Origin: an uncultured Candidatus Saccharibacteria bacterium
Lineage (GTDB): Bacteria; Patescibacteriota; Minisyncoccia; Phycocordibacterales; UBA9973
DNA: 64,000 nucleotides
Assembly (NCBI GenBank): GCA_964596395.1
Contig: CAZQSY010000003.1
Location: 25,678 to 89,677 of the forward strand
Direction: 5' to 3'
Part shown: positions 11,345 to 45,557 of the stretch, in pieces
How positions within the stretch are numbered: the first letter of the stretch is position 1
Layout: each line of letters opens with the position of its first letter
Made by a program: the position numbers and the translations under genes
Notes under the pieces: generated by a model
Told to the model about the DNA's origin: nothing
Database searches by the model: none
What the model saw: the letters and a program-made list of their open reading frames with translations, nothing else

Positions 11345-11481
11345 GTACTCAAAGTTATCCACAGCCCCGCAGACAAAAATACGTTTACGCTGTTATATAA
11401 TGATATATGTTGAAGCTCGCAAGGGTGCTCATAATCAAAAGTCGCTACTTTACTAATTTATAATTTTTATGTTGCTTTTTT

Positions 11482-40964: not shown

Positions 40965-42758
40965 ATGGACAAAGAAAAATTGCAAGGCATAAGGCATTCG
41001 CTGGCGCATCTTCTGGCGGCCGCAGTATTGGAATTGCATCCGGACGCCAAGAACACCATCGGCCCGGCTATTGAAGACGGGTTTTATTACGATTTTGAAT
41101 TCTCTGCCCCTGTTTCCGACAAAGACCTCCCGAAGATAGAAAAGAAGATGAAGGAAATCCTGAAATCCTGGAAAGAATTTTTGAGCGAAGAGAAAAGCGA
41201 GGTAGAAGCAAAAGAATACTTCAAGAACAATATTTATAAACAAGAACTCATCGATGAGATAAAAACAAAAGGAGAAAAAATAACTTTCTACACCTGCGGA
41301 GGATTCACCGACCTGTGCCGGGGCGGGCATGCCGAAAATCCGAGCAAAGATATAGACCCCGACTCTTTCAAGCTCGACCGCGTGGCCGGGGCCTACTGGC
41401 GCGGGAATGAAAAAAATAAAATGCTAACGCGTATTTACGGTCTTGCTTTTGCGACAAAAGAAGAATTAGATGATTATATAAATCAACGGGAAGAAGCGAA
41501 AAAAAGAGACCATCGAAAGCTTGGTAAGGAATTAGACCTATTCCATGTTAACGACATAGTGGGATTAGGGCTTCCCTTATGGCATCCAAAGGGAGCACTT
41601 TTGTGGAGAATTGTTGAAGAATTTTGGTATAAAGAACATTTAAAGAATGGCTATGATTTGGTTAGATCTCCCCATATAGGAAATAAAATACTTTGGGAGA
41701 AGTCCGGTCACTGGGGTTTTTATAATAAATCTATGTATCCACCAATAGAAGTCGGTCAAACACTAGAAGAAAAACAACAAAATAAGAAAGTGGAAATTTC
41801 TGAAGAATATTTATTAAAACCAATGAATTGTCCTTTTCACATAGAAATTTTCAAAAATAATCCAAAATCTTATAGAGATCTTCCTCTACGTTTGGCTGAA
41901 TGTGGAACTGTTTATAGATTTGAAAAAAAGGGTGAATTATCTGGACTTACCAGAGTAAGAGGATTTACTCAAGACGATGCTCATATTATCTGCAGAAAAG
42001 AACAAGTTGAAGAAGAACTGAAAAAAGTAATAAATTTTATACTTTTTATTTATAAATCTTTCGGCTTTGATATAGAAACTGTAAAAGTTTTTCTTTCTTT
42101 ACGAGATCCAGAAAATAAGGAAAAATATGCAGGTAATGACAGTGGCTGGAATTTTACGGAAGAAGTATTGAGAAAAATTGCTATTGAAGAAAAATTAGAC
42201 TTCAAAGAAGAAAAGGGAGAGGCAGCTTTTTATGGACCTAAATTAGATTTCAAAATTAAAGATACATTAGGAAGATTATGGCAATGTTCTACGTTACAAT
42301 TTGATTTTAATTTACCGGAAAGATTCGACATAACTTTTACAAATCAAAAAGGAGAACAAGAAAGAGCTTATATGCTTCATCGTGCATTATTCGGTTCTTA
42401 TGAAAGATTCCTTGGTCTTCTGATAGAACATTATGCCGGGGCTTTTCCATTATGGTTATCACCTATACAGGTTAAAGTTATTCCCGTACGAGAAAATCAT
42501 AACGAATATGCTAAAAAGATTTTTGAATTATTGAAAGAAAATGGAATTCGCACCGAACTTGATGACAAAGAGGAAAATCTCGGTACCAAAGTTCGCGATG
42601 CCAAAAATAACAAGCTTCCTTACTGGATAGTTATTGGTGATAAAGAAATATCAGCTGAAAAGGTAAATCTAGAATCTCGCGACAAAGGTCAACTTGGTCA
42701 AATGTCAAAAGAAGAACTCCTCGCCAAATTTGTCGAAGAAATAAAAAACAAGAAGTAA
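40965..42758 (+). CDS. thrS: threonyl-tRNA synthetase (short form lacking the N-terminal TGS domain)
   Basis: It starts directly in the second additional domain (HSLAHLLAAAV). Class II motifs and the Zn ligands are present ('CPFHIEIF', 'HRALFGSYERFLGLLIEHYAGAFPLWLSP'). C-terminal anticodon-binding domain. Confidence 0.9.
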   Translation: MDKEKLQGIRHSLAHLLAAAVLELHPDAKNTIGPAIEDGFYYDFEFSAPVSDKDLPKIEKKMKEILKSWKEFLSEEKSEVEAKEYFKNNIYKQELIDEIKTKGEKITFYTCGGFTDLCRGGHAENPSKDIDPDSFKLDRVAGAYWRGNEKNKMLTRIYGLAFATKEELDDYINQREEAKKRDHRKLGKELDLFHVNDIVGLGLPLWHPKGALLWRIVEEFWYKEHLKNGYDLVRSPHIGNKILWEKSGHWGFYNKSMYPPIEVGQTLEEKQQNKKVEISEEYLLKPMNCPFHIEIFKNNPKSYRDLPLRLAECGTVYRFEKKGELSGLTRVRGFTQDDAHIICRKEQVEEELKKVINFILFIYKSFGFDIETVKVFLSLRDPENKEKYAGNDSGWNFTEEVLRKIAIEEKLDFKEEKGEAAFYGPKLDFKIKDTLGRLWQCSTLQFDFNLPERFDITFTNQKGEQERAYMLHRALFGSYERFLGLLIEHYAGAFPLWLSPIQVKVIPVRENHNEYAKKIFELLKENGIRTELDDKEENLGTKVRDAKNNKLPYWIVIGDKEISAEKVNLESRDKGQLGQMSKEELLAKFVEEIKNKK

Positions 42759-42759
42759 A

Positions 42760-44898
<2,139 letters not shown>

Positions 44899-45012
44899 TT
44901 AGTTAAAATAAATCAAAAAATAAAGGCAAAAATCACTTTCTGCTTGTACATAGTATAACAAAAACCAGCGCAAAAAACCAGCTTACCCCGTCGGTAGGCG
45001 GGGTCAAAATTT

Positions 45013-45235
45013 GAATAAAAAAATCCCCGAACGACACTGTGTGCCGTCCGGGGAGGACCGGACCTGGGGTGGCTATTTCTTATCGCCACCCCCAAGGTCT
45101 GGCCAATCCTTGGGTTCATCGAAGGGCCGCATAGGCCCTCCTTTCTTTTAGTTGCCGCTATCCGCGGTAGGACTCCCTTCTTGACTTTCAAAGGGAGAAA
45201 ATTGTGCTCAATAAATTGAATCCAATTTTCTCCCC
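45013..45235 (-). ncRNA. candidate structured RNA / regulatory leader upstream of gyrB with alternative antiterminator and terminator hairpins
   Basis: On the minus strand there is a series of perfect hairpins: GAGAAAATT/AATTTTCTC, GGGCC/GGCCC, CCCAAGG/CCTTGGG, GGTGGC/GCCACC. Then GTCCGG-TCCTCC-CCGGAC overlaps the terminator CCCCGGACGG...CGTTCGGGG plus U-run (45013-45052). No coding potential. Identity unknown. Confidence 0.3.
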
Positions 45236-45275
45236 TCAAAAAGAAAGATAAAGAACAAATTGAAAGAACTAAAAC

Positions 45276-45313
45276 AAAAACCAGCCCGTTTTCTAGAGGG
45301 CTGGTTTTTGTTT
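45276..45313. terminator. bidirectional intrinsic terminator (A5-CCAGCCC-gttttctaga-GGGCTGG-T5)
   Basis: Perfect 7-bp GC-rich stem flanked by an A-run and a T-run. On the minus strand it lies downstream of pheT. Confidence 0.55.
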
Positions 45314-45484
45314 TGTAAGTTTCTTTTTTGTGGAGATTATTTACAACGCAAGAATCAGACCTCTAGACCTTTTCGGCCAGACCTTAATAAAGAGGCGGTT
45401 ATTAATATATGCGTGTAAAACTTTATTCACAGTTTTTATGTATATCAAACTTGTTTACCCAAGTAAAGTGCCACCTGTGGATAA

Positions 45485-45553
45485 CCCGCACACTTACTTT
45501 TTTGATGCGCCCTGGGCGCATTGTAATCAATATCAAGAAAGTAAGTGTGCGGG
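45485..45553. repeat. 16-bp perfect inverted repeat (CCCGCACACTTACTTT...AAAGTAAGTGTGCGGG) enclosing an inner 8-bp palindrome (ATGCGCCC tg GGGCGCAT), 4 nt past the pheT stop
   Basis: Read directly from the sequence. It forms a long stem-loop in the pheT 3' UTR. Confidence 0.7.
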
Positions 45554-45557
45554 ATAA

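Follow-up and report, generated by a model that had tools for sequence, protein, structure and literature searches.

Organization of the pheT-gyrB spacer

The 64,000-nucleotide stretch of DNA analysed here (the window; contig CAZQSY010000003.1) comes from a genome of the Patescibacteria, Paceibacteria/Nomurabacteria type, and our subject is the spacer between its pheT and gyrB genes. Three genes follow one another on the minus strand, pheS (48170-47454), pheT (47450-45558) and gyrB (44898-42760), and the spacer that the last two flank is 660 nt long. The first-pass annotation had flagged positions 45005-45280 of this spacer as a hairpin-rich region without an open reading frame (ORF), in which an antiterminator and a terminator might control gyrB. 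That observation is partly confirmed and its interpretation partly supported. The flagged region is probably the payload half of an autonomous, attenuator-gated transcription unit of ~460 nt (45484-45017, minus strand) situated between pheT and the gyrB promoter. Judging from its sequence, the proximal half of this module (45484-45271) is likely a member of a family of leader-peptide attenuators, and the flagged region is what the switch would control.

The GyrB protein of the window is at most 81% identical to that of any of 185,579 species representatives. The nearest PheT relative in a collection of 5.8 billion proteins is only 69% identical, and therefore no species-level comparison of the window locus is available.

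gyrB keeps its own promoter downstream of an insert

In relatives such as L001, L002, L003 and L013 (comparison loci carry the prefix L), gyrB begins ~70-100 nt after pheT, and the short spacer consists of a conserved TG-n-TATAAT promoter and a 5′ untranslated region (UTR) of ~50 nt. The 80 nt before gyrB in the window (44981-44902) are homologous to this promoter and UTR, with 78.8% identity to L013, and contain the following element.

44952-44960, minus strand: gyrB extended −10 promoter (TGTTATACT), outside the module, which aligns with TGCTATAAT of L003, L013, L007 and L016

In these four loci, the aligned −10 element directly follows the upstream gene. Because the gyrB promoter and UTR are shared with relatives that lack the intervening sequence, the ~570 nt from the pheT stop codon to the gyrB promoter represent an insert in the window. 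A linked element is carried by only 5 of the 80 closest gyrB loci, and most relatives are without the insert.

This arrangement bears directly on the proposal that gyrB is the regulated gene. The extended −10 element of gyrB sits downstream of the strong terminator T2 described below, and relatives without the insert keep the same promoter. The flagged region therefore does not lie between this promoter and the gyrB start codon, where a leader of the gene would be expected. When the flagged region was used directly as a query against 80 related gyrB loci, the gyrB promoter part alone was recovered, and the covariation check that had been proposed for the gyrB upstream region found 45005-45270 in none of the 80. 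No conserved aptamer with covariation was found for a gyrB leader, there being one distant homologue among 186 loci. Thus, the flagged region is not a gyrB leader, and a gyrB riboswitch is not supported. The terminator had been placed ~110 nt before gyrB; its U-run is 119 nt from the gyrB ATG, and this stretch holds the gene's own promoter.

Several smaller features surround this promoter. Between T2 and the gyrB promoter there is a small hairpin, ACCCCG-CCUACCGA-CGGGGU (44985-45004), with two GCUGGUUUUU repeats after it; the same GCUGGUUUUU motif is found upstream of the gyrB −10 element in L003, L013 and L016. At its other end, gyrB (minus strand, end at 42760) converges with thrS (plus strand, end at 42758) with practically no spacer, which leaves no room for terminators between the two genes. 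The PheS and PheT proteins encoded upstream, at 238 aa (the catalytic core only) and 630 aa, are both unusually short relative to typical bacterial enzymes, which fits a reduced genome.

A family of putative attenuators in Patescibacteria

Five insert-bearing relatives (L005, L006, L008, L017 and L025) have a conserved piece in common with the window, corresponding to positions 45420-45270. An exact 23-mer from this piece matched 106 stretches in metagenome contigs of the Joint Genome Institute (JGI), 80 of which were examined, and a hidden Markov model (HMM) of the core recovered extra copies on the loci in hand that do not match the 23-mer. The resulting family has 104 unique instances in Patescibacteria contigs, five of them in genome contigs near gyrB. 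At least two modules are present in 22 of 111 loci, often in tandem and 430-560 nt apart. The window carries one copy only (45370-45270; nhmmer with the family core, E 1.2e-18), and the core motif has no match in viral contigs.

The typical order of parts is a promoter-proximal box (in a subset of members), a −10 element, a GTG or ATG codon, an ORF of 20-30 codons, a conserved motif, a linker and a terminator hairpin. The motif that follows the leader ORF reads U-UAG-AAGGC-UGA-UAUUUGCGCUG-UAA, and the linker is G-poor and A/C-rich (..ACUUACAACYCAAACACC). The unit is closed by the hairpin CCAGCCYUCUA..GGCUGG with a U-rich tail. In the window, the corresponding features are as follows.

45476-45484, minus strand: TTATCCACA box, an exact match to the DnaA-box consensus, just upstream of the module promoter
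45439-45447, minus strand: putative extended −10 element (TGATATACA) of the module promoter, read from the sequence and placed by analogy
45341-45430, minus strand: leader ORF of 29 codons plus stop, predicted by translation (V/M-NKVLHAYINNRLFIKVWPKRSRGLILAL*)
45354-45365, minus strand: r2 (UAGAGGUCUGAU), located by the nhmmer core match and by pairing, which can pair with r3 as an antiterminator or with the upstream r1
45294-45303, minus strand: r3 (CAGCCCUCUA), identified by pairing, which forms the 5′ arm and loop of T1 and is the partner of r2
45271-45304, minus strand: T1, the intrinsic terminator of the attenuator, with stem 45304-45298/45287-45281 followed by UUUUUGUUUU (−15.1 kcal/mol, z −3.8)

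The box matches TT[AT]TCC[AC]CA upstream of the −35 region in 45 of the 104 unique modules, always on the same strand and at one position, ~−105 relative to the conserved core, and it was found on the opposite strand in 0 of 104. From this distribution, the box is judged to be a conserved part of the module promoter. Other modules have TGCTATAAT-like −10 boxes 4-9 nt before the GTG or ATG; by analogy, transcription of the window module would begin 2-3 nt before its GTG.

Further exact TTATCCACA sites occur at 2057-2065 and 11355-11363 of the window, again close to promoters, and the first of these precedes tgt. A replication origin was considered and dropped: the boxes are promoter-proximal, one of them stands before tgt and not dnaA, and the GC skew shows no switch. 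The box of the module also falls within the 3′ arm of a long hairpin directly 3′ of the pheT stop codon (45482-45556, minus strand; 25-nt arms, 92% complementary), which encloses an inner TGCGCCCAGGGCGCA hairpin. This long hairpin has no U-run and is not an obvious terminator. It is the source of a spurious Rfam match to mir-1468.

The family does not correspond to any known class in the collections searched. There was no match to it in Rfam 15, Pfam or NCBIfam, and an Rfam scan of eight loci with typical members gave nothing relevant. The Rfam/Infernal search that the first-pass annotation had called for returned no family in the spacer at gathering thresholds (T-box, amino-acid leaders, SRP, RNase P, tmRNA and 6S included), and only spurious, far lower-scoring matches with E values up to 10, in agreement with its statement that the RNA class is unrecognised. 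Across the whole window, Rfam reported two tRNAs only, plus chance miRNA-like or terminator-like matches at permissive thresholds, and ARAGORN found no transfer-messenger RNA (tmRNA). Neither the leader nor the payload peptides belong to a Pfam or NCBIfam family. Literature searches on the peptide motif and on attenuators or structured RNAs of Patescibacteria found no description of the element. A conserved leader-peptide attenuator of Patescibacteria thus appears to be undescribed.

Leader ORF and putative sensor codons

In 85 of 103 instances, the frame that begins at the GTG or ATG continues as far as r2 without a stop, whereas the other two frames are open in 7 and 15. A short ORF of the kind expected of a leader-peptide attenuator is therefore predicted across the family, and the window copy (45430-45341) is intact. 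The conserved motif contains a stop codon in each of the three frames, and how long the variable middle is decides whether the leader ORF ends at the UAG, the UGA or, most often, the UAA. The window peptide ends in ...RGLILAL*, compared with the consensus ...RRLIFAL*, and the codons involved differ by two synonymous changes and one conservative change. The family does not depend on the C-terminal RRLIFAL, since in 24 of 103 members an earlier stop codon, in a different frame, ends the peptide.

Within the variable middle, many leaders contain runs of one hydrophobic residue. Such runs, of at least three identical residues, are found in 54 of 95 distinct leader peptides (Phe 30, Leu 11, Ile 9 and Val 4), compared with a mean of 12.5 and a maximum of 24 of 95 when residues are shuffled. 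The runs are written in mixed synonymous codons, for example UUG CUU CUA CUC or GUG GUC GUC GUC, a pattern that reflects selection at the codon level. Most of them end 11 nt before r2.

Predicted alternative base pairing of r2 and r3

A structural feature of the family is the pairing potential of r2. This segment (UAGAAGGCUG) is complementary to r3 (CAGCCYUCUA) over 10 contiguous positions in all 104 instances, with a complementarity score of 18.1 out of 20 compared with 13.2 in shuffled windows. Position 2 of the helix covaries, with 85 A-U, 5 G-C, 1 C-G and 1 U-A pairs. As r3 is also the 5′ part of T1, the 2:3 antiterminator and the 3:4 terminator are mutually exclusive. In the window, the segment from r2 to r3 folds at −20.0 kcal/mol (z −5.9). 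The 3′ half of r2 can also pair with an upstream UCAGCC (r1) that adjoins the codon run, with a score of 11.1 compared with 9.7 for the control and 90 of 104 instances above it.

The alternative structure has the hallmarks of an intrinsic terminator. On average, 5.7 of the 9 nt after the T1 hairpin are U, and at least five are U in 88 of 104 members; the window T1 has a 7-bp stem of G and C followed by UUUUUGUUUU. The earlier idea of an attenuator-type RNA with exclusive hairpins in this spacer therefore stands in kind, whereas its location does not: the supported switch (r2, r3 and T1) lies upstream of the flagged coordinates, and the T1 U-run overlaps the start of the flagged interval. A further candidate helix, P0, in which the beginning of the leader ORF would pair with the segment that follows r2, is not claimed, as its gapless complementarity (14.5) is close to that of shuffles (14.1). 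A bulged version of P0 looks plausible by eye.

The probable payload half of the module

The abundance of hairpins reported for 45005-45280 is real. The minus-strand RNA of 45010-45250 folds at −114.9 kcal/mol, compared with −72.3 +/- 4.7 kcal/mol for 200 dinucleotide shuffles, none of which was as good (z = −9.0). The plus-strand fold (−99.8 kcal/mol, z = −7.35) is 15 kcal/mol weaker, and the G-U pairs, of which T2 has two and the hairpin that holds the Shine-Dalgarno sequence has one, fit a minus-strand RNA only. The hairpins present are H1, CCGC/GCGG, GGAGGGCC/GGCCCUUC, CCAAGG/CCUUGG, GGGGUGGC/GCCACCCC and GUCCGG/CCGGAC. The statement that the region has no ORF is wrong in detail, since a GGAGG (45141-45137) is followed 4 nt on by an ATG that opens a 19-codon ORF. 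The features of this half are as follows.

45250-45268, minus strand: two GUUCUUU repeats after T1, in a stretch that is near-identical in L169
45191-45237, minus strand: H1, a long hairpin with a 15-bp perfect stem, a small internal loop and a 5-bp apical stem (−26.9 kcal/mol, z −5.75)
45119-45143, minus strand: hairpin GGAGGGCC/GGCCCUUC, which sequesters the GGAGG and carries the AUG (45132-45130) in its loop (−15.3 kcal/mol, z −3.8)
45073-45132, minus strand: 19-codon ORF MRPFDEPKDWPDLGGGDKK*, predicted coding by translation only
45066-45092, minus strand: hairpin GGGGUGGC/GCCACCCC, found by fold and repeat analysis, with the UAG stop of the ORF across the junction of loop and 3′ arm
45017-45054, minus strand: T2, the strong intrinsic terminator that ends the module, with a 14-bp stem containing two G-U pairs, then U7 (−25.3 kcal/mol, z −6.95)
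45046-45063, minus strand: hairpin GUCCGG-UCCUCC-CCGGAC, the antiterminator of the first-pass annotation, present in the sequence and outcompeted by T2

The terminator predicted before gyrB is thus confirmed: the T2 stem (45054-45024) comprises 14 pairs, 9 of them G-C, with a 3-nt loop and a tail of seven U nucleotides. It is also correct that CCGGAC is common to the small hairpin and the 5′ arm of T2. However, the GUCCGG/CCGGAC hairpin itself is at chance level (−10.8 kcal/mol, z = −1.2), a stability equalled or exceeded by 24 of 200 shuffles. In its 50-nt context, the terminator wins by ~15 kcal/mol and the hairpin is not formed, and it has no counterpart in L169, the sole homologous locus. 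Terminators with different stems and then the same UUUUUUAUUCAAAUUUU tail precede gyrB in L006, L113 and L185.

L169 is the only detectable homologue of the flagged sequence among the 186 loci (nhmmer E 6e-5). It has the same order of parts, with T1, two GUUCUUU repeats, a long hairpin, a Shine-Dalgarno sequence, a mini-ORF beginning MRP and a terminator with a different stem. The segment after T1 is near-identical and is the best conserved part between the two loci; 57 of 104 modules have a GTTC[TC][TCG] sequence no more than 35 nt downstream of T1. The H1 counterpart has the same position and architecture with different arms (GGGGCGGUAUUUGG...CAAAUAUCGCCUC in the window and GAGGGGAGAAAAUUGG...CAAUUUUCUCCCUU in L169), several pairs having changed on both sides, and hairpins of 20-25 bp also occupy this position in L081, L086, L100 and L164. 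Because their counterparts in L169 have changed stems, H1 and T2 are conserved as structures, whereas the middle hairpins and GUCCGG/CCGGAC are not. The mini-ORF of L169, MRPVKPKRITGPNDDEKEDDNGWGT*, lies behind AAAGGAG at the same position as the window ORF.

No promoter-like site was found between T1 and H1 (45270-45238) in a scan that covers sigma-70 consensus promoters only. The simplest reading is therefore that the flagged region is transcribed only by read-through of T1.

Some further sequence relationships were noted in this half. When the payload is translated through its stop codon, it has weak similarity to a 61-aa protein, the L109 payload, in a comparison with 380 proteins (39% over 36 aa, E 0.07), a hint that the 19-codon ORF may be what remains after truncation. 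An 11-nt perfect complementarity links AAGGUCUGGCC in the leader ORF (45375-45385, one of three AGGUCU repeats) with GGCCAGACCUU in the payload ORF (45094-45104), where we estimate a chance expectation of roughly 0.05 for the spacer; this could be a long-range pairing of leader and payload. A 108-aa ORF starting with TTG (44913-45239) runs across the region and has no Pfam match; it is treated as spurious. A MAFFT alignment of ATTCAAATTTT, which follows T2, with the pheT 3′ end of relatives raised the possibility of a duplicated pheT end, which was set aside; the window's own pheT end differs, and the alignment was judged to be an AT-rich coincidence.

Sister modules and the genes that follow them

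Elsewhere in the family, the payload position is occupied by a strong Shine-Dalgarno sequence and a small ORF of 8-110 aa. Several pairs of sister payloads are plainly homologous proteins with conservative substitutions, and many have CxxC pairs. None has a Pfam domain, and ten of the longer proteins gave sub-threshold zinc-ribbon hints only. Payloads differ greatly even between orthologous modules upstream of gyrB. The RNA after T1 also tends to be structured across the family, with a mean best 70-nt fold of −23.6 kcal/mol compared with −17.5 kcal/mol for shuffles, and 42 of 104 members at −25 kcal/mol or below.

The large gene that follows the second terminator and its own promoter is aspS in 22 cases, gyrB in ~10, and valS, pheS and leuA in one case each; these identities come from sequence inspection and clustering, and not from Pfam runs. 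Modules upstream of aspS, valS and gyrB have the same plan, with a leader, a Shine-Dalgarno sequence and small ORF, a strong terminator and then the −10 element of the large gene. The window follows this plan, with T1, the GUUCUUU repeats (45268-45250), H1, the Shine-Dalgarno sequence and 19-codon ORF, T2 and the gyrB promoter. Because the spacing of the payload stop codon and T2 varies from one module to another, no further switch that depends on translation is proposed at T2.

In some modules, the putative sensor residue corresponds to the large gene that comes next. A VVVV leader precedes a ValRS-like gene and an FFFF leader precedes a PheS-like gene (L146 and L162), and an LLL leader before leuA forms another suggestive pair. 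However, Phe runs are found in 18 of the 22 modules before AspRS-like genes (at loci such as L102, L128 and L133). Some modules with Leu runs are followed by a second Leu-rich mini-ORF (e.g. MKHQISKFNTTLTLLLLTQ...) with its own alternative hairpins, as in L089 (from ~4318 downward, minus strand), L006 (near 1630), L113 (near 6489) and L173 (near 459). In L089, a gene that is LeuA-like by inspection follows, and the arrangement looks like tandem attenuators ahead of leucine biosynthesis on a Patescibacteria contig.

Proposed mechanism

These features suggest a mechanism based on ribosome position. Transcription would start 2-3 nt before the GTG, and the 29-codon leader ORF would be translated with almost no 5′ leader. 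The r2 segment, which lies within or after the leader ORF, would then be able to pair with r3 to form the antiterminator (−20 kcal/mol), or else r3 would pair with r4 to form the intrinsic terminator T1 (−15 kcal/mol plus its U-run). A ribosome that reaches the stop codon, just past r2, would mask r2 and permit T1 to form, such that transcription would stop at ~45271 and release an RNA of ~160 nt. Conversely, a ribosome delayed at the hydrophobic codons near r1 would cover r1, leaving r2 to capture r3 and allowing read-through to T2.

The read-through RNA would comprise the flagged region, with the GUUCUUU repeats, H1, the hairpin that hides the Shine-Dalgarno sequence and start codon, the 19-codon ORF and T2. 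H1 might serve as a processing or stabilising element, and by its length might be an RNase III-type substrate, although this is speculation. The locking of the Shine-Dalgarno sequence and AUG at −15.3 kcal/mol might add a further layer of control, or the ORF might not be translated. T2 would insulate gyrB, which would be transcribed independently from its own promoter. As read from sequence, the module likely serves to make the production of a rapidly evolving micro-protein (or structured RNA) dependent on the availability of charged tRNA.

More tentatively, the family as a whole might constitute a 'ribulon' of Patescibacteria, which we regard as a serious possibility short of a probable one. 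This would be a multi-copy set of near-leaderless leader-peptide attenuators that use one RNA scaffold and a promoter element resembling a DnaA box, and in which the sensor codons for Phe, Leu, Ile or Val can be exchanged. Every copy would gate a fast-evolving micro-protein or structured-RNA cassette placed before a housekeeping promoter (aspS, gyrB, valS, pheS or leuA), and the flagged region would be a cassette of this kind.

Alternative explanations

Several observations weigh against the attenuator as described. The leader of the window copy has no run of at least three identical residues (NNRLFIKVW), and it is divergent, scoring 62 bits where typical members score 80-95, such that this copy could be decaying. 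The window r2:r3 helix has one U-C mismatch, and the r1:r2 hairpin (−9.9 kcal/mol) is no better than shuffles (z 0.14). The payload has a single detectable homologue, L169, and apart from MRP and some aligned residues the two mini-ORFs have little in common; the window ORF has only 19 codons, with its Shine-Dalgarno sequence locked in a hairpin of approximately −15 kcal/mol. At the level of the family, genes for the cognate amino acid are not the direct targets, which are diverse small ORFs without a Pfam domain. Part of the family was collected by an exact 23-mer, which inflates the conservation of r2 and of the stop region by ascertainment, and the covariation evidence comes mainly from r3 and from positions that the 23-mer does not cover. 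In addition, the members are related, and instance counts are not independent events. Finally, we know of no demonstration of leaderless, GUG-initiated translation in Patescibacteria.

Of the other explanations for the flagged region, decay deserves the most attention, although we consider it unlikely. The payload would be the remnant of a longer small-protein cassette in which T2 alone remains important and none of the other hairpins has a present function, which would account for the divergent leader without a codon run, the payload ORF in the shortest class, the weak resemblance to the L109 payload through the stop codon and the variation of payloads among orthologous modules upstream of gyrB. 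However, the leader ORF is intact and its conserved end has changed only synonymously or conservatively. Perfect long stems (15/15 and 8/8 pairs) would erode quickly without selection, and H1 has compensatory changes relative to L169. Slightly less likely still is an independent noncoding small RNA (sRNA) of ~220 nt, with an unrecognised promoter of its own and an end at T2, in which the 19-codon ORF is fortuitous. This possibility, raised in the first-pass annotation, is right that the unit is independent of gyrB, and the extreme, strand-biased structure, the conservation of H1 as a structure in L169, and the tiny, poorly conserved ORF with its buried Shine-Dalgarno sequence and AUG are all compatible with it. 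Against it, no −10/−35-like site is seen between T1 and H1, although Patescibacterial promoters may escape a sigma-70 consensus scan. Moreover, sister modules hold clearly conserved proteins led by a Shine-Dalgarno sequence at this position, L169 has a Shine-Dalgarno sequence and an MRP... ORF, and the strong conservation of the segment right after T1 suggests one continuous transcript.

The original reading, in which the region is the 5′ leader of gyrB and GUCCGG/CCGGAC competes with the terminator for read-through into the gene, is very improbable and largely refuted. The two hairpins do share CCGGAC, and family modules lie directly upstream of gyrB in ~10 loci, where read-through might make some contribution to gyrB. 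Nevertheless, the conserved extended −10 element and 5′ UTR downstream of T2 are all that most relatives have, and T2, with its U7 tail, far outweighs a competitor that drops out of the context fold and lacks a conserved equivalent in L169. The region also has no Rfam match. Modules of this type stand before aspS, valS and further genes as well, in each case with a separate terminator and promoter. We give the least credence to the notion that the hairpins are a palindromic element acting at the DNA level (REP- or MITE-like, or a recombination site) that was inserted before gyrB. Perfect stems that fold well from both strands and the presence or absence of the insert among relatives would fit such an element, but no part of the region is repeated anywhere else in the 64-kb window, neither terminal inverted repeats nor a target duplication could be recognised, and the core motif is unmatched in viral contigs. 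The G-U pairs in T2 and the Shine-Dalgarno hairpin likewise favour the minus-strand RNA, which is more stable by 15 kcal/mol. An attenuator-gated unit that is independent of gyrB accounts best for this locus.

Implications

If this interpretation is correct, ribosome-mediated attenuation, which is best known from amino-acid operons of Proteobacteria, would extend to the ultra-small Patescibacteria and would there gate tiny proteins of unassigned role instead of biosynthetic enzymes. Patescibacteria are generally reported to lack most amino-acid biosynthesis and widely reported to depend on external amino acids, and the switch would let them sense the amino-acid supply directly through the ribosome. 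Its ~100 natural versions, which differ in their sensor codons, would form a test set for the readout of ribosome stalling, and dozens of unannotated micro-protein families would be flagged as candidates for a link to starvation. The analysis also corrects the idea of a gyrB RNA switch in this lineage, where gyrB keeps an ordinary conserved promoter. For annotation, it indicates that long 'empty' spacers of reduced genomes can hide complete transcription units.

Relation to known regulatory systems

Classical attenuators (trpL, pheL/pheA, pheM/pheST, leuL, ilvL, hisL and thrL) operate by ribosome stalling in a leader ORF and by a logic of 1:2, 2:3 and 3:4 pairings. The family resembles them in its short leader ORF, its codon runs for one residue near r1, the choice of r2 between r1 and r3, the r3:r4 terminator with a U-tract, and a stop codon placed such that a terminating ribosome masks r2. 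It differs in having no sequence or covariance-model kinship with them; the best match to an Rfam leader is Thr_leader (RF00506) at 24.6-27 bits, where the threshold is 55, and it involves the terminator only. Unlike the classical systems, the leader ORF of the family is apparently leaderless and mostly GUG-initiated, stop codons in three frames lie in the r2 region, and the antiterminator loop is a conserved, G-poor and A/C-rich linker of 40 nt. The family would also directly control tiny, fast-evolving ORFs and not biosynthetic operons, and it occurs in multiple and sometimes tandem copies, with Patescibacteria as hosts.

Leaders of the tnaC type rely on the nascent peptide and a Rho-dependent terminator. 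Like tnaC, the family has a leader of ~25 codons whose stop codon is followed by a G-poor, C/A-rich unstructured stretch, a possible Rho loading site. In contrast to tnaC, it has a canonical hairpin and U-run, the r2:r3 covariation explains the switch without Rho, and the C-terminal RRLIFAL is dispensable. T-box RNAs are functionally analogous to the family as proposed, in which tRNA charging would likewise be sensed by a choice between terminator and antiterminator, often near aminoacyl-tRNA synthetase genes (here 22 aspS, 1 valS and 1 pheS). However, the family has no T-box sequence or Rfam match, and it would sense charging through the translating ribosome and not by direct tRNA binding. 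The synthetase genes behind family modules also have their own promoters after the second terminator.

The nearest conceptual relative is the mycobacterial 'Cys ribulon', in which leaderless short ORFs encoding polycysteine are described as Cys-responsive attenuators (Canestrari et al., bioRxiv 10.1101/834739). As presented in that report, these ORFs act on access to the ribosome-binding site and not on a terminator (10.1101/834739). Leaderless translation from AUG and GUG has been documented in mycobacteria (PMC4633059). The two systems would have in common leaderless sensory mini-ORFs that begin with AUG or GUG at the 5′ end, a stall run of one residue, several independent copies per genome that follow a single logic, and a ribosome position that remodels the downstream RNA. 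Relative to the Cys ribulon as it is described there, the family has no sequence similarity and belongs to another phylum; its competing structure is an intrinsic terminator, and its sensor codons specify Phe, Leu, Ile or Val in place of Cys.

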